Shown piece by piece: positions 491 to 63,401 of a DNA stretch of 64,000 nt. The notes under the pieces were generated by a model. That model saw nothing but the letters and a program-made list of their open reading frames with translations, was not told the DNA's origin and did not search any database. Made by a program: the position numbers and the translations under genes. Each line of letters starts with the position of its first letter. Within the stretch, counting starts at the first letter, position 1. The DNA lies in NCBI GenBank assembly GCA_010015805.1, contig ML978124.1, positions 1,178,001 to 1,242,000 of the forward strand, given 5' to 3'. The DNA comes from Rhizodiscina lignyota. Its lineage: Eukaryota.

Positions 491-3400
491 CTAGCGTGAT
501 TCTGCTTGCGCCTTTGGACAAGCCTTTTGAGCTGAAGTAAGGAAAGCCACGCCGTCACTGTAAGAAAGTCGCTCAGCATGCGCCAGAAGCGTTTCGCCAT
601 CTTTATTTTTCGAATCAATGCTCCCTTCCGCATTGATGAGTTGCTCTAGTAATGGCAGATTTTGCGCTTCTATGGCGTGGTGCGCGAGCGGCGTGCTGTC
701 CTTGTACACAACTTCAGGCGGCATCCCCCATTTGAGCAAGTTCTCGAGCAGGAGAGTCTTACCTCGTGCTGAAAGAATCCGAGCGATCGGACAAACGTCA
801 CTGTCGATGACATCTGTCGCGTTCTTGCCGGGATCGGTGTAAAGTGTCTTCAGCAACGCCCGTCCGATAGCGCTGTGGTGTTGTGGCCAGGAGACAACTG
901 TAGACTGAGCGAGTAGCTTCAGAGCTGTATTTCCCTCTTTGTCAGCGAATTTGACGTCGGCTCCAGCATCAAGAAGCGTGCGAACGGCAGCTGTTGCCCC
1001 AGACTTGACCGCAAGGTGAAGGGCGGTCTGCTGGAAATAACCACCGCTCGCATTAACGTCAATAGATTCGCTCTGAAGCAGTATCTTCAACATCGTGTGC
1101 TGGTCCCGGGATAGAGCGCCATGCCACTGATTTGCCGCAAGCAGCAAAGGAGTGCTACCAGATGCGTTTCGAGCATTTGCGTCGGCCTTTTTGAAAAGCA
1201 GCATACCGGCCGCCAGAACATCTCGTCTTCGTACTGCGAGATGCAATGGGCTATTGAGCGTCCCTGGAGATGGATGGTTTACATTAACGCCACCGCAAGC
1301 ATTTGATTTCAGCAAACAGGCCAGGGCGTATAGCTTGTGCTTTTCAAGCGGCTCGATATCGGCGCCAACGAAGATTTTCTGTATCGGAAGCGTGCCTGTG
1401 GAGTCTGGCATATTTGGATCCGCATCCGCGTCGATAAGAAGGCGGACCATCTTGTTGTAGCCCTTAAAGTATGGTAGCTGCAAGGCCAATATGAGGGGCG
1501 TTCTCCTCTTCGTCGGATGTAGGACGTTGACATCTGCGCCATTGTCTAATAGATACTTCAGGCACTTTGTGTGTCTGTACGTGGCACCTTTGATGGTTCG
1601 GAATATTGGTCCTGTTCTGGGCCGGTCTTTGGTGCCTGGATTGCACTTTCGCTCCATCAGGAACGCTACCGCGGCGGCTTTGCCTTCCGAGCAATACTTT
1701 TCTAGCAACCCATGGTCATGATCAAACCATCGAGTTGGGAAGCTATTCAGGGTTGATCGAGTGCGTTCAGACATGGCTGAAGTAGCCATTGATGATGCCT
1801 CCCACGCGTCATCAATATATTTCTGGGGGTCTACGAGATTAAAAGAAGAGCTCTCCTCATCGTCTCTAAAATCCGAGGGCTCATCCTTTGTAGGACTTGC
1901 TGGAAACGCAAAAGACACCTTTCGCTGGACCGACGAAGCTTCTTTTAGTCGAGCAGACGTGAGCTTTGGAGCCTTGTTTGACTTTTGACTTGTTGATGCC
2001 TGTCTCTTGCCTTTCTTCGATTCTGGTCGTCTTGATGATTGCATACTCTCTGCGTCTGGTCGAAAAATGTCCGTTCCTGGCTGAGTAGCCTCTGCGTGCA
2101 GTTGGCTAGTTACGTCTTCATAAAGAGGCGGTGCGACATCGTTCGAAAGCGATACCATAGAATCGATGGGTTCTTTTAGTAGTTGAGAGTCAATGATGTC
2201 CGGAGTAGACGAATGTGAAAGTCTACGCTCTGCCTCTGATGCTCTTGTTTCTGAGCTTTGGTGCACTTCTACTTTCTCTTCTTCGGAGGCATTCTCTTTC
2301 TCAGCATTCTGACTGAATATCTCCCCCTTCTGAAAGTCAATGTCCCCTGTGCCTGGCTCTTGTCGCTCCCATTCCAAGGCATCCTCTTGCTCAACAGCAC
2401 CTTCTTGGACAACTTCCTCCAGGGAATGGTCCTTGTCAATATTGTTCTCCGCAAGTTGACAAATCGTAGTTTCATCCTCAGCGATGCTAGAGGGATTCGT
2501 GAGTGCTGGCCTGGCAGGATCTTCTATGGACGAAACCGACTGCGACTCTCCGAGAAACTGCGGTTCAGATGATGAAGAAGAAACCTGAAGGCCCAATGGT
2601 TCTGTGCCTGGTGAAGGAGTTTCCTCTGGACCAGCCTCATCGGCTTCCTCCTCCGAGAGCTCGTTAATGGTCTGGATCAAAGAAGGTGAATGCAGCAGAT
2701 AACCACCTGGTATGACATCTGGTTCTGCACTCTGCGAGGATTTTAGTTTCCCGAGTCTAGCCTCAACGGTCTGTGGGGTATCCTCTAGCGGCATAATATC
2801 ACTGTCTGAGTCGGAGCTGTCTTCTACGATCCTAAACGGAAGGCTGATTCTTGGATCAGGACCATCTCCAGATCCTTCTCGTTCTTCCATAGATCGGTTG
2901 CTCTCCGAAGAGGTGTCACTCTGAACACAGAAGCCAAGTCCGGTGTCTGTGTAACTTTCATGTCGACGCCTGAAAGCTGACGAGGTACTAGGCATGTCCA
3001 TGACGATTGGCTTCTGATACATTCTGATGTTTGAGTCAGCTGCTGGCAAGGGGACTCCACCATCTTGTGGATAGGCGCCTGGCACAGATGGGCCGCTGTC
3101 AGTGGTATTGAAAAGCCAATCTTGTATACTAATGCTCTTTCCCGGATCGATCAGATTTGTCTCTGTTCCAAGAAGCATCTCAATTCTCTCGTTCAGTACA
3201 TCCTCGTCGCCAGAGTCCACAAATTCATCATCCTCAACCTGCACGTCTTGATCGTATATTTGTGCTGCGTAATCGGGATCACAATCAAGGCAACAGAAGA
3301 TTTTAAAAGAAGGACAATCGTGAATGTCTTTCATCAGAGCCTTCGAAGTCGGCCGATTCTGGGGATAACTCTGCAGAAGGTCTTGAGTCCAGGTAAGCGG

Positions 3401-4667
3401 CTCGTTATCTGTGTCAGCTATCCGCGTGCGTAGAATCTCCATCCACTCGACAGCAGCAGGTATGTTGGCCCATACAGAACTGCTCATGTCCCTCTTAGAT
3501 CGCTTTCTCTCCATGTGGATCTTAAACTCTGTCAATGAGCGGCCGAGGAGAACTGTTGTGACTTCGAGGAACACAACCCCAAGAGACCACATATCGCTGG
3601 CTCGATTCCTCGGTTCTCGTTTTGCTACTTCTGGTGCCATGTACTCTTCGCTCACAGGTAGTCGATCGTTGGTTGTCGATCTCTTCGAACCAGTCCATAT
3701 ATATGCGTTACCGAAATCGCTGAGAAATACTCGTCCGTCCTTGACCAGGATGTTACGTGTTGCAATATCTCGATGCCGTATGCGTTGACTATGCAGGTAG
3801 TTGACTGCACCAGCCAAGCACCCATAGGAGTATCGTAAGGCGAGGAGATCAGGAACACCTGGATTGGCTATGTACTCCAGAAGATTGCAGTCGGCGACTG
3901 GCTCCATAAGATATGCAATGTATTCATCATCCGTATAAGAGCCGAGAAACTTCACTAAGTGCCTATGAGATAATTTTTTCAATGCCGTTATCTCTTTGAC
4001 AATATGGGTTTGTCGTTGTCGATTTTCTTGCGAGTCTTTTCCGCGTAAAGTTCTCTTGCGAGCATACTGCTTCAAGCTCAGTTTGCTTGACACAAGATCA
4101 ACGGCACTAGATTCGGCGATCAGCGACTGCCCAATTCTTCAGTGCTCGAGAAACTTACCTGAATCCACCTCTACCAAGCTCCTTGATAGAAGTGAAGTAT
4201 ACACGCCCTGTAGGGAAGATCTGATGAGGCCCGTCGGGTCGCTCAAGCTGACCAGCATCGGTCACAACGTACCGCTGAGTCTGAAGAAATAGGTTCCGAA
4301 GGCGATCGCCGACGACAAAATTGGGGAGAGTTCGGAAGTCGTATGGCAAGTGATAGTCCGTGAGATTGAAATTGATAAACGAGTCCATGAGATGCAAGGC
4401 ATCTATCATGCGGAGAATAGCATATGTTCGGGGGTAGCGTTGCCACGAGCTGTAGTAAGTACGGCTATTCTTCCGATCTTGCAAGGCCAGAAAAGTAGAA
4501 ACGTAAATGAAATTGACTGCTGGTATCCTTCCTTGAGCCGGTGCTTTACAAAACCACTCCAGTGATTGCTCGATGGCTTCATCAGACATGGGAATGTACT
4601 GTGACCCTTGAGGCCGCGCAGGCTTGCGCCGCACCATCCATCGAACAAACGAAGGAAGAGAATCCAT
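491..4667 (-). CDS. Protein kinase with long acidic linker and C-terminal ankyrin repeats (about 1374 aa, 2 exons)
   Basis: Exon 1 4667-4159, intron 4158-4107 (GTAAGT...GCTGAT...CTAG), exon 2 4106-491. Splicing restores the Gly-loop LGRGGFSAV. Also present: ARK (VAIK Lys), KEI (alphaC Glu), HRDIATRN, DFG, YMAPE and DMWSLG. Ankyrin motifs TPLILA, SPLHLA, TPLLLA, TALHLA lie at about 560-1700. Confidence 0.92.
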
Positions 4668-4970
4668 TTCGGGATCCTAAGGAAAGTGATGAGTGTCGTT
4701 TTGATAAGTTTGACGAAAGAATGTCAAACGAGGCTGAACACCTAAATATTGGATGACCTCGAGTCCCCGCTTGGCGTCCATCACTGCCGCCGGTGAGCTG
4801 CAGACACTTGCGATTGGTGTAGCCGCCTGCTGGTAGGTGGGTGCTGCGCCTCGCCGTGGCTGTTATTGCCCTGCGACTTACCGTCCTCTCTTTGTGATGT
4901 GAGAGAGTTGGCCATTCATTTCCCACTTTGTTTTCCTCTCTCTCCAGCACAGAAGCCATCAGAGTACACC
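4668..4970. promoter_or_regulatory. 303-bp divergent (probably bidirectional) promoter region
   Basis: Lies between the kinase ATG (4667, minus strand) and the HeLo-pseudokinase ATG (4971, plus strand). Inferred from geometry only. Confidence 0.55.
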
Positions 4971-6716
4971 ATGTCGGGTTTGGACGTGGCCGCCGGAGCC
5001 GCCGGACTTCTTGGTTTTGCATTTCAGTCCTTTAAAGGCTGCATTGAAGCTTTCGAATTCTGCCAAGATGCGCAGCGTATTGGTCGGGATGGCGACTTGC
5101 TAAGAGTGAAACTACAGTGGGAGCAGTTGCGATTGATTGAGTGGGGCGAGCGAGCAGGCATCGTGGGTGTTGAACCTTCTCCCGTGGAACGGCTCAATTG
5201 GCAGATGGCCGTGTCATGTCTGCAACAGCAAGAAGCTCTTCTCACATCTGCCGAGAAACTGAAAGACAGATACGGTTTTGATGTGGTCGAAGAAGTCAGA
5301 CCTTTCATACCTCCGAACGATGGCTCATCTCCTTCCGGCCTTCGACGGATCATACAGCGCAGGATACCAGACTACTTTAATGCGAAAGCACGATTGATAC
5401 AGGATCGCAACAGCACAGGAAGGCGGATCCGTTGGGCAGCAATTGACAAAAAGAAAATGCGAGAGATCATCGCAGATATTGCCGAAATCAATCTCCGCCT
5501 TTATCAAGTCCTTGAATCTCACGAGCGAGAGACGTTACAGAAATCCCAAGTCGCTCTGATTCGGGATTTGATATCGAGTAGCTCCAGTACCGACGAGGTA
5601 GAGGAAGCTCATCAAATACTCGATCCTCGAACATGGCAGAGTGATCAAGCTCTTGATGCTGCGACAATCTTGAAAAAGATACGCCTCGTCATTGGTTTCG
5701 ACACAAGGGAGGATGAATGCGTTCCTGAGACCGGAGAAGAGTTGACACCATTGAGAAGATTGAAGATGCGAAAGCTCTGTGCTATGAGCTCTAAGAATCT
5801 GGGCTGTACCGGAATCGAAATGGCCGAGTACAGCGGCAAAGCTGTTGTAGTCGAATGGCGGTCGGTCTCCGCCTCCCTTTGGCAGCAAATGGAGCGGCGT
5901 ATATGGCTCCTAGCAAAGCTATTGAGCGCTGTGAAAGATCCATCATTTCACACGCTGCAATGCAGAGGCTACCTGTCAGTACAGGATGAGAGCCTCTTTG
6001 CGCTTATATATGACGTCCCCGTTGGTGTCCCGAAATCCATAAGCACGCCGCTGCAAGTATACAGCCTTCAGGAGGTAATCTTGAAGCGGTCAAACTTGTC
6101 ATTACGCGAAATATTTCGTCTAGCTGAGAATCTTGCAGAGACAGTATTGTCGCTGCACACGGCAGGATGGCTCCACAAATCGATTCGGCCCGGCAATATC
6201 TTATTTGTTTCGCAGGATGAGCCTGCAACGGTTGATGTCGTCTTCAGTGGCCCATTTCTTGTTGGTTATGGGTATTCTCGTCTGAGCAGGCCCGATCAGT
6301 CGCTTGTGACGGAGCTCCCGGATACCTTCCTGCGCGCCGATCTATATCGCCACCCCTCTGCAAGGGGGCTCAACAGACTACCCTTTAGAAAAGCTTTCGA
6401 TCTTTACTCTCTTGGATGTGTTTTAGTGGAGATAGCATTTTGGAAGAGCCTTGTGGAAGTGATATCAAAATTTTCAGACAGCGACTTCCCCGCTGCGCTG
6501 CTGAAGGCAGAGCAAGAAGAGGCTAATCTCGAGCTTCCTTCGCTCCTGAGTTTCAGGTCTGATCAAGCACGATATTCGGGATTGCTCCATCATGTTGGAG
6601 TCTACTACGCCGAAGCTGTAGAGCTGTGCTTCTCACCGGAGCTTGTAGATGAAGATGAGATTTGGTTGGACGTCCATGCCAAAATTGTAGAGAAGCTGCG
6701 TCAGTGTTGCTGTTGA
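4971..6716 (+). CDS. HeLo (prion-inhibition/HET-S-like) domain plus C-terminal pseudokinase, 581 aa, intronless
   Basis: The N-terminus MSGLDVAAGAAGLLGFAFQSFKGCIEAFEF...LRVKLQWEQLRLIEWG matches the HET-S HeLo pattern, and RRIRWAAIDKKK is typical of the end of HeLo. The kinase-fold motifs are degenerate: VVVEW, HKSIRPGNILF, LVGYGYSR, YRHP, DLYSLG. Confidence 0.9.
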   Translation: MSGLDVAAGAAGLLGFAFQSFKGCIEAFEFCQDAQRIGRDGDLLRVKLQWEQLRLIEWGERAGIVGVEPSPVERLNWQMAVSCLQQQEALLTSAEKLKDRYGFDVVEEVRPFIPPNDGSSPSGLRRIIQRRIPDYFNAKARLIQDRNSTGRRIRWAAIDKKKMREIIADIAEINLRLYQVLESHERETLQKSQVALIRDLISSSSSTDEVEEAHQILDPRTWQSDQALDAATILKKIRLVIGFDTREDECVPETGEELTPLRRLKMRKLCAMSSKNLGCTGIEMAEYSGKAVVVEWRSVSASLWQQMERRIWLLAKLLSAVKDPSFHTLQCRGYLSVQDESLFALIYDVPVGVPKSISTPLQVYSLQEVILKRSNLSLREIFRLAENLAETVLSLHTAGWLHKSIRPGNILFVSQDEPATVDVVFSGPFLVGYGYSRLSRPDQSLVTELPDTFLRADLYRHPSARGLNRLPFRKAFDLYSLGCVLVEIAFWKSLVEVISKFSDSDFPAALLKAEQEEANLELPSLLSFRSDQARYSGLLHHVGVYYAEAVELCFSPELVDEDEIWLDVHAKIVEKLRQCCC

Positions 6717-8117: not shown

Positions 8118-11027
<2,910 letters not shown>

Positions 11028-27819: not shown

Positions 27820-29321
27820 TCAGAATTCGGTGAACATGCGGGCGTATCTAATCGTAGTCAAATCCATGAATTGCATATTTTCGAGTTGACTTACGGGTCC
27901 TCGCCCATTTGCCCATACGCCTCCGTCTCTTCGGGATACTTGTCAAACTGACTCGCATCACCAACTCCGGCGCGGACAGGCGGTACATATGGCGCATCAA
28001 TGTCCTTCTTCTGTAAACGGTCCCATGTCACCTCTGCGAACCACGGGTGGTTCATAACGTCCTTAGAGCCGCCGTGGAGGTTACCCAAACGCTTCGTAAG
28101 ATCGGATGTGATGAGTTTCTGGAGCAAGTCTTGCGCGTCAGGGTGGATATATGGCGGATACTTGACCTTTCCTTTGAGAATATTCTCATAGATCTTCATT
28201 GGTGAGCCGCCGTCCCAGAATGGAGTAAAGCCGCAGAGCATCTCGAAGATCAGGATACCTAGAGACCACCTGGTCCATTATCAGCCTTCACGCAACAGCA
28301 CTAGGTTGCTGCAAACGTACCAATCAACCGACTTGTTGTATCCTTTCGACGCTACAACTTCTGGAGCGAGGTAGTCCGGGGTTCCGCAAAGTGTCCAGGT
28401 GATATCGGGCACTTCCTTCGCGAATCCGAAATCGGTAATCTTGAGATGTCCGTGTCGGTCTAGAAGCAAATTCTCTGGCTTCAAATCGCGGTAGATGATG
28501 TTCATACTGTGGAGATAGTCCAGCGCGAGTGTGACTTCGGCGGCGTAGAACTTTGCGACTGGGTTGGGGAATCGCTAGATCGATCAATTCCACCGCCATA
28601 GTTAAGACGTACTTTCACGTACCTGAGATTTTCTCAAGAGGCTAAATAGCTCGCCGCCTTCCACGAAATCCATGACCATGTATAAATTCTTGGAATCTTG
28701 AAATGTTCCCCATAGTGTGATGAGGAAGGGGTGCTTCACGCTCTGAAGCATTTTCCGCTCGTCATTGGTGTGCTCGACCTGCTTCATCTTCACCACCTGC
28801 GCCTTTTTGAGCACCTTGACGGCATAGTAGCGCTGGTTGTGCTTCGACTGCACCAGGTGCACGCGACCAAAGCTGCCGGTACCAAGGGTACGCTGAATGT
28901 CGAAGTCGTTGAGGTTGTATTTGCCCTTTGTCGTGCGCAGCTGCGGCTGCGCTTGCGCCTGCGTCATCTTGTCGCCGCTGCTGGGAGTCACTGCGCCGCC
29001 ATTGGCATTCTGCGCGCCTGCGGCGGCATTGTTGGGTGGTGATTGATCGTCAGGTTTGTTGAGAAGGTTCGCTATGCTTGGCACATTCTTCGAAGTGTCT
29101 GTCCCGCGTGCCACGTTCCCTTGCTGCGTGGCGGACATGGGGTCGGCCGGTTTCGCGGCGGAATTGCTATCTTGCAGCGGAGAGCCCTGTGTGGGCGTGG
29201 AGGTGGTGGCGGAGGTGGGTGTCGAGGAGCTCTCTTTGATGGGTGACGTCGGAGAGTCCAGGTCCTTCGAACCTGACGAGTCCTTCGTCCGCTTTTTCTT
29301 GAGGAATCCGAGAGTCGGCAT
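27820..29321 (-). CDS. pkaC1: cAMP-dependent protein kinase catalytic subunit, multi-exon
   Basis: [55 protein letters not shown]-terminal FTEF*. Confidence 0.97.
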
Positions 29322-30337
29322 AGACGCGGGAGTGAGTCGTGTGTGTCAATCCCAGCACTGGTGAGAGCTGGGTCTAGTTCTGTGGCTGCCACTTCTCTAC
29401 GGGCCGTAATTGAGCTGCGGAGAGACGCTTCGCACCTGCGGGACGAGCGCTGAGTGGTCGGGGGGCGTTTGTCGCTGTTTGTTGCCGGCGGGAGCGGGAG
29501 AGAGGTAGCGCGGCGGCTTAGGCGAAGTGATATCCACAGATCGATATGCGTATGAGCTGCGATGAGGTACGGAGCAGTGTCTGAAGCGGAGCGTAGCGGG
29601 TGCTGTCGGTGGTGGGCGCTGGCCGGAGGTTCGCTATCGCTCAATCACGCAGCGCTGGAATGTGGCTTGGCAGGCACGGGGCGTGGAGCTGAAGCAGGAG
29701 CAATTGGTATGAATGTTTAGCAGTGCTCGGAGTGAGGTTGGAGAGTGGGAGGAGTGACGCAGAGTAGCAGAGTCCCTGCCGACTAGCGGGCAGCAGGAGG
29801 GCGGCCGGCGAGTCGAGCAACTCTCATGAGAAGAGGCTTGAGAGCTTCCTCTGCGGGGTTGGCGGCGGGCAACTCGAGGCACAGACTCTGGGCTAGTGCC
29901 TTCTCACCACCGCTCAGCTTCAATTCGACAGAAGGTGACGGCGCGGGAAGCCGCCTTGAGTGAAGGAGTGAAGTGCCAGGATTGCGCGGGCGCTGATCTC
30001 AGGAGCTGACAGGATTGGTGTGTTCCTCAACACATACATCGCCATCCCGCCCCAGCCACATGCGGAGAAGCAGCTGCAAAAAGCAGCTGGAAGAAGCAAG
30101 CGCACGTTCGCCGAGGGCCGTTCAAGAGCTATATTAGAATATTCTATGCCAACGTGCAGAAGTACCTGTGATGCCAAATCCCAATCCTCGCGAACACCCA
30201 GCCCAGCCCAACGTACACACCAACGCCCCTCTGTTTGCCAGGACCTGTCAAATTTGATATACATGAGAATGCCGCCTAAAGAAAGTGGTATCTACAGAAG
30301 AAAATATGACCCAATAGAACCTTTGGACAGATGAAGG

Positions 30338-57625: not shown

Positions 57626-58825
57626 TCAGTCGCTCAAGTCGACAATTTCGACCTGCTTGTCAACGTCATAGGACGTCCTCGCCCGTTTGCAGCGCTGTGC
57701 GCTCGTTATGACCACGCCCTCTTCGTCCCCGTCGAGTTCGATCTCACAGTTGACCTTCTCACGCTTGATATTCTCACTCTTAATCTTCTCCCTCTTGATT
57801 TGCTCAACCTTAATCTGCAAGCTCGTACCCTGCGTAAGTATCCGTGAGTAAAGTAACATTAGCTTGAAGTGTGAGAGTTGTCTTACCCTCTGGCGCCGAA
57901 GAAGCTCTCGCATCTCTTCCGGGCTTAAATCGTCGACTTCTCGCTCTTCGAGGGGGACTGGGGAGGGTGTTCGTGGCACAATTCCTTGGATCTTCAGGGC
58001 TTCTTTAAGGAATTCTCATCAGCAAATGACTATTCTGGACTGAAGAAGAGTACAACTTGCCGAGAGAGCGATAGCGAAAGCCGAATTCAGCAAGAGGAGC
58101 ATCTTCAGGATCGATACTTCCCGTCTTGAAGGTTTTCCACATGCCGTGTCTGTACGGAATAGGTTGATCAAGCCTGACTTCGTGTCAGTTCTGCTATTAG
58201 TGAAGACTAACACAAGCAACGTACTTGACTGTTTGCGAGATAGCGCGTCCCTTCAGAGCCTTTTCCGGGATGGGCTCGACGCCCAGCGCCGGGTCCTTCG
58301 CTGTCAGTGGAATCTCAGTCCCTTGAAGGATATTTTCGCGCCAGAGCCGGACTGAGATTGTCCCCAAAGACTGCATTTTCCTCTGAAGGCCTGCCGAGAC
58401 AGCCTCGGTGCTCTCCTCACCTACGACAATTAGTTTAGTTTCAGCATTTCGTCGTACGGACTGAACATACTGAACGAAATGTCAGCGAACAAAAACTTCT
58501 TCGAAGAGCACGAGCCATCTTCCGAACGACAATTCACTCCCTCAACCGTTAATTTATAACCATTTTGAAGATGAGAAGGCCCGAGAAGAACGCTTGTCGC
58601 ATGATCTCCGTCCAAGTAGATGCGCGAGGTGAGGCCAGTAGACTTGTGAGGGAAATCTTTTCCGATAATCCAGCGTAGTTCGAAATTCTCTCCTGATTTT
58701 GCCTCAACGTACTTCGTGATAGTGTTTGGATTCACTTCATCATTGTCATTATCATATCCAATGAGTTTCGAACCATTTGACCAGATCTCGACGGTAAGCT
58801 CTGGGATGCTTGGGAGGATCGCCAT
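57626..58825 (-). CDS. DUF7918-like uncharacterised protein, tandem paralog A (5 exons, apparently intact)
   Basis: MAILPSIPEL...TITKYVEAKSGENF, LGTISV, IPEKALKGRAIS, FGFRYRSL, IVPRTPSP.LEER, ending EIVDLSD*. Confidence 0.8.
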
Positions 58826-59573
58826 GCTTGTCGTGTCTTGAACGTGAAAGCCAGGATATACGCTTCCGAGAGAAGCAAATAGAGAAAGTGAGAGAGACAG
58901 AGTGTGCTGTAAGAAAGTAAGGTAATAAGGAGCTCGTTGAAGTTGATGGAGAGAAGTGGGGAGCAAAGCGAGTTGAGGTTATCATGTATCGCATGAGGAA
59001 GGAACCACCCTTATTGAGTGAATATAGATCACTGAAAGGAAGGAAAGTAGAGAAGACTCAAGAGGAAAACAGTGCCAAGAGGCAGTGCAGTCAGACAAGC
59101 TTATAAACAGCTGCTTGTGTGATTCGAAAGTCAATTCGAGTCTAGAATGCTCAAGGAGCTACAAGCTACACTTCGAAAGCTAGAATGTCCCGCGTCATGC
59201 GAATACAGTTCAAGTCTCCTGATGTCCAGGACAACTTTGGATTTAACTGGTCTAATGGACATGACAATATAAGCTGAAGTCTCCGTATACTCAGGAAACA
59301 CCAGACTTCCCGAAGATACTTTGGACGAAAGCTAGCATATGAAGCGACAAATTGCAATATGATGCAGATACATAGAATGCAGACTGCTACCGTCCAGCAC
59401 CATGTGCCTCCCCTCAGAACTCCGATTTTGTAGACTTGAATAAGACCACCCTAATGATGTAGAGCAACTATATGTTATGTGCGAGCAAGATGATGCAACG
59501 AAATTCCGAATCGTTGTGATCTCTACTTACTGAGGTGTGAGAGAGGTTGAAGATCAGGAAAGGAGACAGTGGG

Positions 59574-61693: not shown

Positions 61694-62861
61694 TCACTCA
61701 GTGAGGTCAATGATCTCTGCGGTACTGTCTGGACGCGCGCGTTTATGTGGTCTAGCATCGGTTACGACAGGCACATCCTCGTCGTCGGAAGCATCGTCAT
61801 CGTCATTTGGTCGTTCTCTCTTTAGCGACTCCAATTTGACTCGCTTATGGAATTCATCGGTTGTCTGAAGTATGTAAGTAAAAGCTGGTGAGGTGATGTT
61901 GTGTATCATACGGTGTGTCGACGGGCAAACTCAAGAAGCTCCTCTCGAGTGAGGGATTCCGGATTCTTCTTCATGCGAACTTCGAAGGGTTCCGGCGACG
62001 GACTGCGAGGGATGATATGGAGATCTTTTAAAGCAGCTATGTAATACAGAATAAGTCAGTTCCGTAGCTGACAGAAGTGACGTTTTATGGGTAGGGATGC
62101 GTACCTAGAGACCGAAATCTAAAGTTGAAGGTGGCGAAGGGCTTCTCCCATGGATCGATCTGTTGAGAATTCCAGACAGTGCAAGGGTTGGTGGGCATCT
62201 TTTCTTCGAAGCTAAGGATCTGTAAGCAATTTCGAAACGCCTTTAAACGGGCCAATCTTACGTGGCGCGATGGGAGATCGCGCTCCCTTTTAACGCTTTC
62301 TCTGGGACGACTCCCACATCGTTGAGATATCCACTTGGTATTCCAGGCATGACCTTCTTGACCTTCTTCACTCGCCAGAAGCGGACAGAGATAACACCCA
62401 GTGATTGGATTTTAACCTTCTCGCGCTCGGTGATTTTGCGGACATCCCCGTCGTCTGTATATGTCAGAAAAAACACAATGGAAGTGACTCTGGATAATTA
62501 ACTCACCTATTTCGAGCTTGGAGAAGAGGTATTTCCTCAGGACCCATTCCCCTTTCTCGTAACGGTGGGCGCCATTCTGGATGATGTCCTTACCGCTGGT
62601 AAGATCGTCTTCTGACCAGAGAATACTATCGACCTCTTCTCCGTCAATATAGATATGTACAGCGATGGCATATTGTGCGTATGGGAACCAGCGTGAGATA
62701 TTCAAGTGAATTTGAAACCGTTCACCGGATTTTGACTCGATGTATTTGGTTATCGTGTTAGGCTGCTCAGCTTCATCGTCATCGATGTTATACTCCTTGA
62801 GAATGCGCCCTCCAGACATAATGTCCACGCGCACGCCAGTCATGGTGGGGAATATCGCCAT
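61694..62861 (-). CDS. DUF7918-like uncharacterised protein, tandem paralog C (5 exons, intact)
   Basis: MAIFPTMTGV...TITKYIESKSGERF, LGVISV, VPEKALKGSAISH, FNFRFRSL, IIPRSPSP, ending EIIDLTE*. Confidence 0.82.
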
Positions 62862-63401
62862 GCTGCGAGCTTCATACGGCGTAGAGGTAACTTGTTGAGG
62901 TGAGAGGGGAAGCCCGCACTCGAAAGTAGAGTAAGGCTTTGAAGTTGATGAAAGATAGAGTCAAGAGTTTTTTTTGATGCGAGGTACGCAAAAGAGTAAA
63001 GAGAGCCGTCAAAATAAGTGAAGAAGTTGGTCCCCCGATGCTAAGCCGTGTTTGGCACCGTGCGCCTTCCTCTCCTGCCCAGCCCAGTGCAAAGAACAAG
63101 TTAGAATTATGCTGAAGAGTCATGTAATTAACAAAATAGAGCCGTTAAGGGCCACTATGAGGCGACTCTCAATTCTGGTAATGAGCATCTCAAGCTCGAT
63201 GCAAGCGGCCATGGCTAAGCATAAGGAAACATCGTCATACGTTACTGTGTACGCCGAAAAAGTCATGCGCCCAATTCCTGGTATCGCAGCCAACCTGAAT
63301 GCAATTCGCCGTCCATTCTATGCAGATGCTTCCCATCAGAAACAATAGAAACCTTTGACGTGTTCTTCTTCCTCCGTGTTCTCTCTTTTCCCTTACTTCT
63401 A

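Follow-up and report, generated by a model that had tools for sequence, protein, structure and literature searches.

A 64,000-nucleotide window of the Rhizodiscina lignyota genome (assembly GCA_010015805.1, contig ML978124.1, positions 1,178,001 to 1,242,000 of the forward strand) was analysed, and all positions below refer to this window. Near its start lie two divergently transcribed genes, one encoding a protein kinase with ankyrin repeats (hereafter KA; 491-4667, minus strand) and the other a HeLo domain fused to a pseudokinase (HeLo-PK; 4971-6716, plus strand). The open reading frames (ORFs) and the sequence place the two start codons 303 bp apart, as an original prediction made from the sequence alone had stated, and the shared intergenic region (4668..4970) is presumed to act as a bidirectional promoter. 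Comparison with other fungi demonstrated that KA and HeLo-PK form a real, conserved two-gene module of filamentous ascomycetes with divergent transcription.

The KA gene encodes a product of 1374 aa, a gene model drawn from the ORFs, the sequence, Pfam matches and 229 homologs of the same layout. Two minus-strand ORFs (4155..4667 and 491..4138) were joined through a 52-nt intron (4107..4158) with GTAAGT as donor, CTGAT as branch point and TAG as acceptor, which gives exon 1 at 4159-4667 and exon 2 at 491-4106, stop codon included. This intron splits the glycine loop of the kinase, and the spliced junction (LGRGGF joined to S-AVDLV) matched the family consensus LGxGGFGxVDxV. The encoded protein consists, in order, of a putatively SAM-like N-terminal bundle, the kinase, a long acidic linker and the ankyrin repeats. 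A kinase with all of its catalytic motifs and C-terminal ankyrin repeats had been predicted for this gene, and Pfam and the motifs confirmed it, with the intron and the N-terminal domain as additions to that description.

The KA catalytic domain (3281..4190, minus strand, across the intron) was delimited by Pfam, motifs and homolog alignment, with a Pkinase match at 3.4e-34 (aa 8-259; these and the other kinase residue numbers follow exon 2). A G-loop is present and is followed by Lys17 in YARK, the αC Glu38, HRD at 111-113 (HRDIATRN), Asn118, DFG at 130-132, Thr145 and APE at 157-159. Alignment of 28 homologs showed Glu38, His111, Asp113, Asn118, DFG, Thr145 and the Pro-Glu of APE to be invariant and Lys17 to be at least 90% conserved, while 94 of the 120 listed KA homologs carried HRD..N and DFG by pattern. 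KA is predicted to be a catalytically competent, active kinase of the RD type, and it appears to be under selection as an enzyme because its catalytic residues were invariant or at least 90% conserved across the 28 homologs. A cysteine cluster of the form FCCxxC (FCCLDC here; 3281-3298, minus strand, exon-2 residues 270-275) lies past the kinase domain, is conserved in most KA homologs according to the consensus, and might represent a palmitoylation or metal site.

No Pfam family, SAM included, matched the first ~170 residues of KA. An AlphaFold2 model of the N-terminal 169 residues reached a predicted local distance difference test score (pLDDT) of 85.8, and Foldseek returned no match to this model at E <= 0.001 (best E > 2). 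When the model was compared with 48,161 chains by VIA-align, SAM domains filled nearly all of the top 50 rows, including those of Ste11 and ASK3. The best row was the Tric1 SAM domain, with a modest Z of 6.1 (below 8) and a root-mean-square deviation of 1.8 Å over 61 of 65 residues, aligned to KA model residues 75-136. Considering this modest Z, the N-terminus may with reserve be described as a SAM-like bundle; the helical domain covers approximately aa 30-137 (4257..4580, minus strand), and residues 75-137 are modelled as the five-helix bundle itself. A hidden Markov model (HMM) of this N-terminal domain also picked out linked kinases at other loci.

The linker (1766..3115, minus strand), defined by composition and pairwise identity, is rich in Ser (15.6%), Glu (11.6%) and Asp (8%) and is poorly conserved, with a mean pairwise identity of 19% among the 28 homologs, where the kinase domain reaches 49% and the ankyrin region 44%. 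The ankyrin region (776..1615, minus strand) matched Pfam Ank_2 (1.4e-29), Ank, Ank_4 and Ank_5, with the best stretches of these families at aa 995-1068 of exon 2, and its DNA showed no tandem or repeat-on-repeat similarity. Among the relatives of KA, P0189 from Annulohypoxylon truncatum has its kinase domain fused to TPR instead of ankyrin repeats and P0167-P0186 are without repeats, a swapping of repeats that is reminiscent of fungal NLR and protease sensors.

HeLo-PK is encoded by a single exon (4971..6716, plus strand) of 581 aa, and its AlphaFold2 model, built on 26 homologs, had a pLDDT of 80.3 and a predicted template modelling score (pTM) of 0.82. The model consists of helices from residue 3 to 241 followed by a canonical kinase fold at 258-581. 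The HeLo domain (4971..5585, plus strand) matched Pfam PF14479 at 4.9e-31 (108.6 bits against a cut-off of 23.2; aa 10-192), and the hydrophobic, Gly/Ala-rich helix at its N-terminus is both present and conserved. It is joined to the kinase fold by connecting helices (5586..5741, plus strand; model helices 207-216 and 224-241) that are brace-like by position and may act as such. The pseudokinase domain (5742..6713, plus strand) forms the C-terminal end of the modelled protein. Pfam Pkinase scored 29.1 bits on it, below the cut-off of 31.7 (aa 365-496), and DUF7580 (PF24476) scored 17 bits, below its cut-off of 27; since many homologs carry the PF24476 label in addition to this sub-cut-off match, the domain can be regarded as a divergent DUF7580 relative. 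The last residues of HeLo-PK are QCCC (6705-6713, plus strand), and 69 of 130 representatives have a Cys at position -3; this is not a canonical CaaX box and may be a site of lipidation or membrane anchoring.

The kinase motifs of HeLo-PK are degenerate: VVVEWR lies at 292, HKSIRPGN, which has no Asp, stands in place of HRD (HKS at 402-404), GYGYSR has GYG for DFG (432-434), and YRHP (459-462) occupies the position of APE. The predicted fusion of HeLo to a dead kinase fold was therefore upheld, as the HeLo match is strong and the aspartates of both HRD and DFG are lost. An exhaustive profile search at E <= 1e-30 collected 2175 representatives of the HeLo-pseudokinase family, and among 130 full-length representatives the DFG-Asp position was Gly in 126 and the HRD-Asp position retained Asp in just 17, with the β3 Lys/Arg kept in 128. 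Judged by these positions, the pseudokinase state is a family-wide trait of HeLo-PK. The activation loop carried a Thr (80) or Ser (48) in 128 of the 130, followed by Glu, Gln or Asp in 122. In HeLo-PK this residue is Thr447 (codon 6309..6311, plus strand), a candidate phospho-acceptor that falls inside a flexible loop with a stretch of low pLDDT (444-447), ~12 residues ahead of YRHP, at the position where the activation loop of kinases is canonically phosphorylated. Profile-profile alignment set Thr447 opposite Thr145, the invariant activation-loop Thr of KA.

The HeLo-PK family profile matched the N-terminal structures of HET-s/HET-S (2wvo, 2wvq and 2wvn; E 4.9e-18 to 1.5e-17), and among its kinase matches the MLKL pseudokinase chains tied with DYRK1B for the best (E 2.9e-5). 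Fold comparison of the C-terminal domain gave a tie between BRAF, MerTK, CRAF, MLK1 and IRAK1 (Z 19-20) among many tyrosine kinases and tyrosine kinase-like kinases. Foldseek ranked full-length mouse MLKL (4btf) sixth; its alignment spans 568 columns and is by far the longest of any row listed, the runner-up having 429. In the ESM Atlas the nearest clusters were HeLo/DUF7580 proteins of Ascomycota, and chordate MLKL was the only non-fungal cluster listed (feature score 0.83; template modelling scores 0.45/0.52), which can serve as a lead only. The MLKL-like layout of HeLo followed by a pseudokinase, a further element of the original prediction, was borne out by the model and by the length of the 4btf alignment.

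To determine the distribution of the pair, protein searches were carried out that returned 71 HeLo-PK relatives, the closest of them with 41% identity, and 229 KA relatives, of which 120 were listed. Word-index searching found ~70 HeLo-PK relatives, a second such search with a profile yielding the same 69 proteins, against the 2175 of the exhaustive profile search; index searches are very incomplete, so that for this family little can be read from absence in them. KA and HeLo-PK were identified as neighbours, from adjacent locus tags or consecutive accessions, in four species and five assemblies: Cercospora zeina (BST61_g6846/g6847), Macrophomina phaseolina MS6 (MPH_12758/MPH_12759), Cirrosporium novae-zelandiae (M1834_009738/M1834_009739), all by adjacent tags, and a second M. 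phaseolina strain (KAH7053274.1/KAH7053275.1) and Colletotrichum cereale (KAK1980206.1/KAK1980207.1) by consecutive accessions. These species cover Dothideomycetes (two orders), Sordariomycetes and Xylobotryomycetes, and the pair is thus syntenic across at least three classes of Pezizomycotina; a lack of synteny elsewhere had been named beforehand as the outcome that would count against a module.

Metagenome contigs were also scanned with the HeLo-PK alignment, which gave 173 stretches; a relative is encoded in 95 of them, and 80 loci were retained. Sixteen of these were assessable, having the HeLo-PK N-terminus and at least 2.5 kb upstream. A KA homolog was the immediate divergent neighbour in three of the sixteen (L002, L004, L025), and a KA-family kinase occurred in another arrangement in two. 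At L005 (5378-11740) the kinase is divergent but ~3.6 kb off with a sugar-transporter fragment between, and at L008 (6146-11758) a kinase recognised by its KA-type N-terminal domain (HMM E 1.7e-9) is found upstream of HeLo-PK and shares its strand; after this kinase comes a 462-aa ORF without Pfam match or ankyrin repeats. One locus (L037) had an unrelated-looking kinase, and no kinase was found in the remaining ten assessable loci (L011, L018, L020, L021, L024, L029, L030, L032, L033, L038), L029 and L030 being identical matches. Two loci with short flanks (L012, L016) showed the start of a divergent KA 0.3-0.5 kb away, so that the head-to-head pair occurred on five metagenome contigs (L002, L004, L012, L016, L025) with a spacing of ~0.3-1.1 kb. 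Some linked kinases lacked ankyrin repeats.

Same-contig coincidences of KA and HeLo-PK, called from exact equality of contig sizes, numbered 16 in 117 x 120 comparisons, in comparison to ~0.18 expected by chance from the density of near misses. Of 20 additional HeLo-PK representatives that were looked up, 6 lay on the contig of a listed KA. With L004/P0115 included, no fewer than 17 of the 120 KA homologs listed share a contig with a HeLo-PK. Because adjacency recurs in unrelated genomes it is far beyond chance, and the excess of same-contig cases ruled out chance adjacency as an explanation.

A HeLo-PK tree of 89 rows was calculated as a quick IQ-TREE run, leaving out proteins of less than 480 aa and taking locus rows from tblastn pieces. 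Every linked row fell within one 80-row clade (Shimodaira-Hasegawa-like approximate likelihood ratio test 96), spread over its sub-clades, and none of the seven assessable rows of the outer clades was linked. With linked rows confined to this clade and two loci inside it (L011, L032) as exceptions, the linkage is old, clade-specific and occasionally lost. The distance matrices of KA and HeLo-PK correlated with a Mantel r of 0.873 over 15 pairs, a value reached by 0 of 5000 permutations, and L005 and L008 grouped together in both matrices despite their differing arrangement; the congruent phylogenies that had been named beforehand as a check on the pair were thus recovered. Gene order in fungi rarely persists across class-level splits. 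The flanking genes of the window, an Rsp5-like HECT/WW ligase and an upstream ORF, were found at none of the 80 loci, and L002 carries a rhodopsin-domain gene in its flank instead; since flanking genes vary between loci, conservation is confined to the pair. Overall, the pair has been co-inherited since before the split of several ascomycete classes. This ancient co-inheritance is established, as are the two architectures, the conserved phosphorylatable residue and, on the criterion of sequence, the competence of KA and the incompetence of HeLo-PK.

We tentatively favour, with somewhat less than even confidence, a mechanism in which KA activates HeLo-PK by phosphorylation, leading to release of the HeLo domain, membrane permeabilisation and cell death in immunity or allorecognition. 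HeLo-PK would be the executioner, its HET-S-type membrane-targeting HeLo domain being held off by its own C-terminal pseudokinase by analogy to the four-helix bundle of MLKL, and KA would be its dedicated upstream kinase. KA would probably self-associate through the SAM-like N-terminal bundle, and its ankyrin repeats would probably bind a conserved partner or trigger. Upon triggering, KA would phosphorylate the Thr/Ser (Thr447) in the exposed activation loop of the pseudokinase, and the freed HeLo domain of phosphorylated HeLo-PK would then oligomerise and permeabilise the membrane, so that the cell dies in an immune or allorecognition response. The physical interaction of the two proteins, its activating direction, the trigger and the lethal outcome are what we infer here. 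A broader reading is that ascomycetes possess an ancient, genomically hard-wired counterpart of RIPK3-to-MLKL signalling, in which KA oligomerises through its SAM-like bundle, where RIPK3 uses its RIP homotypic interaction motif (RHIM), and phosphorylates the activation loop of the HeLo-pseudokinase to bring about membrane rupture; this we consider possible but doubtful. If true, phosphorylation-gated executioners of the four-helix-bundle/HeLo type either predate animals or arose twice, and the fungal pair, with two genes only, would offer a simple setting in which to work out how a killing domain is caged by its pseudokinase.

It is important to note that several observations weigh against this activation mechanism or its necroptosis-like form. 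KA had been proposed to be RIPK-like, and this was not supported: of 678 PDB sequence matches to the KA kinase domain, the best 60 were EGFR, PDK1, MAP3K12, FGFR2, MAP3K5, CHK1 and STK24 and included no RIP kinase, and a motif search for the RHIM core tetrad [IVL]Q[IVLFT]G found it in neither KA nor HeLo-PK. The profile of full-length KA against the PDB was dominated by ankyrin proteins and is uninformative for kinase class. KA therefore appears to lack specific kinship to RIP kinases. The sensor repeats of fungal NLRs are diversifying, and the ankyrin repeats of KA, with an identity close to that of the kinase domain and no repeat similarity at the DNA level, appear conserved, unlike an NLR-type sensor; the sensor role first assigned to them is further weakened by their absence from some linked kinases. 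The activation-loop Thr/Ser is also kept in those clades of HeLo-PK where no kinase is linked; as a phosphosite it would there be open to kinases encoded elsewhere, or the residue may be structural. L011 and L032, inside the linked clade, showed no kinase within 4-10 kb, and no HeLo-PK partner was seen for many KA homologs (Xylariales, lichen-forming fungi) in what were very incomplete searches. In Cercospora berteroae the listed KA homolog and a HeLo-PK fragment lie on different contigs. Moreover, the mirroring of the trees is evidence of co-inheritance and not of co-evolution, as each gene tracks the species phylogeny.

Alternatively, KA may act as a brake or guard on HeLo-PK, which we regard as unlikely. 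KA would then restrain HeLo-PK, either phosphorylating it in an inhibitory manner or binding it stoichiometrically via the ankyrin repeats or the kinase domain, and death would follow the loss, inhibition or mismatch of KA, for example through a kinase-targeting pathogen effector or an incompatible allele after hyphal fusion. Pseudokinases are known as guarded decoys in plant immunity, the presumed shared 303-bp divergent promoter and strict co-inheritance suit a toxin-antidote-like pair, and conserved ankyrin repeats are as expected for a fixed partner. In contrast, HeLo-PK genes with no KA nearby are found at L011 and L032 inside the linked clade and across entire outer clades; were KA an antidote that cannot be dispensed with, such genes should kill their carriers, unless auto-inhibition by the pseudokinase itself is enough. 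Some linked kinases also lack ankyrin repeats.

Equally unlikely is a non-lethal signalling function, in which the pseudokinase would activate KA allosterically or serve as its scaffold in the manner of STRAD-LKB1 or HER3-EGFR, the HeLo domain would only bring the complex to the membrane, and signalling would end in a stress or immune kinase cascade, not in lysis. The combination of a SAM-like bundle with a kinase, as in Ste11-type MAP3Ks, would suit such a function, as would the SAM rows of Ste11 and ASK3 and the occurrence of MAP3K12 and MAP3K5 among the PDB matches of KA, although the SAM-likeness itself comes with a Z of only 6.1. Plant MLKLs, according to the available text of 10.1101/681015, confer immunity that is separable from cell death, but the HeLo domain of HeLo-PK matches the killing domain of HET-S at E 5e-18 and retains the N-terminal hydrophobic helix, and no downstream cascade component is linked to the pair.

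That the pair is primarily a heterokaryon incompatibility locus, with linked allelic variants incompatible in trans, is quite improbable, and would be compatible with activation of HeLo-PK by KA. Fungal het systems often consist of two linked genes that include a death effector, such as het-S/nwd2 and gasdermin/protease (as stated in the available part of PMC12881547), and the divergence of the pair is fast, the closest HeLo-PK relative found being 41% identical. Yet the locus lies amid housekeeping genes, the ankyrin repeats are not hypervariable, and the gene phylogenies agree from class to class, without any hint of a patchy pattern of trans-specific alleles. Finally, it is very unlikely that the two genes are neighbours through co-regulation or hitch-hiking only and lack a direct biochemical connection, since, even though each comes from a large family in fungi (2175 representatives at E <= 1e-30 for HeLo-PK and 229 matches for KA), adjacency lasts across three classes while the flanks change, same-contig cases number 16 against ~0.18 expected, and the trees mirror each other.

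The proposed activation of HeLo-PK by KA can be compared with several known systems. HeLo-PK and vertebrate MLKL share an N-terminal helical bundle, connecting helices and a pseudokinase without the HRD and DFG aspartates. Both also have an activation loop that can be phosphorylated, paired with a distinct active kinase, which for HeLo-PK is KA as the proposed activator. They differ in that the N-terminus of HeLo-PK is a Pfam HeLo domain of the HET-S type, the Pfam scan (E <= 0.01) reporting no MLKL_N match, and KA differs from RIPK3 in not being a RIP kinase by its sequence and in having no RHIM. On these grounds neither protein appears assignable to the MLKL or RIPK family. The fungal pair is physically linked and divergent, unlike RIPK3 and MLKL, whose genes are to our knowledge not physically linked. 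RIPK4 and ANKK1 have an N-terminal kinase, an intermediate region and C-terminal ankyrin repeats, and the domain order of KA is alike in layout only, with the addition of its putative SAM-like N-terminal domain.

Plant MLKLs (AtMLKL1-3, wheat Pm13) likewise combine a HeLo-type bundle, a brace and a pseudokinase and function in immunity, but the available text of the reports (10.1101/681015, PMC10951266) mentions no linked upstream kinase gene, and their immunity can be separated from cell death (10.1101/681015). In fungi, nwd2/het-S and PNT1/HELLP also place a HeLo or HeLo-like executioner beside its activator, as a pair conserved in filamentous ascomycetes, and the gasdermin/protease systems of the rcd-1 and het-Q type place a pore-former beside an enzyme that activates it by post-translational modification, with proteases often fused to ANK, TPR or WD40 repeats (PMC12881547, in the part available). 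KA/HeLo-PK differs from the nwd2/het-S type in lacking an NLR, a prion-forming motif at the C-terminus and any RHIM- or PP-like sequence, and activation there proceeds by amyloid templating where phosphorylation of a fused pseudokinase is proposed here. The amyloid-independence that had been predicted is in agreement with the motif search, which found no PP-like motif in KA or HeLo-PK, and with Pfam, which found no NLR domain in either; nor was an NLR or HET gene present among the large ORFs of the window. In comparison to gasdermin/protease, the enzyme is a kinase and not a protease, the effector is HeLo and not gasdermin, and the proposed modification is reversible.

HeLo-PK itself is a member of the Ascomycota HeLo/HELL-(pseudo)kinase and HeLo-DUF7580 proteins, its homologs carrying PF14479 with PF24476 or PF00069, and this fusion architecture has already been catalogued (DUF7580; reviewed in PMC12881547, as far as its available text goes). 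A linked kinase partner for a HeLo-pseudokinase was not found described in the literature searched, which did not cover subscription journals or supplements, in agreement with the earlier statement that the fusion was known and that no characterised linked activating kinase was. PMC9815663 contains the word kinase in its reference list alone (its supplementary tables not being covered), the available text of PMC10197012 and 10.1101/681015 makes no mention of such a gene pair, and the locus tags of the homologs were not found mentioned in the same literature. What is new here is the conserved partner kinase gene, and with it a fungal two-gene death cluster, as proposed, in which a kinase replaces the NLR or protease. 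The two kinds of fungal executioner cluster described in the literature consulted operate by amyloid templating (NLR to HeLo) or proteolysis (protease to gasdermin), and work on the extent of necroptosis conservation in fungi has been called for (PMC12881547, available part). The kinase/HeLo-pseudokinase pair would add a third, phosphorylation-based logic that is closest to animal necroptosis, and could explain how the very large HeLo-pseudokinase family is controlled. With a candidate upstream kinase, a candidate phosphosite (Thr447) and the residues to mutate now named, the proposal is open to a direct test with two genes.

Elsewhere the window contains ordinary genes, including PDS5, Sec7, an M14 peptidase and Cut8. 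Convergent with HeLo-PK and ~1.7 kb beyond its 3' end, an Rsp5/NEDD4-like E3 ligase gene (8458-10702, minus strand) encodes three WW domains and a HECT domain in at least two exons. The NEDD4-family ligase ITCH ubiquitinates the HeLo domain of MLKL in mammals (PMC8816944, in its available text), but the ligase was rejected as a member of the module, as the gene was present at none of the 80 related loci, and its position is probably a coincidence. Another kinase gene fragment (28602-29345, minus strand; Pkinase 5.6e-22) is unrelated to the pair by position, and two paralogous DUF7918 ORFs (58430-58978 and 62412-62960, minus strand) lie ~3.4 kb apart.

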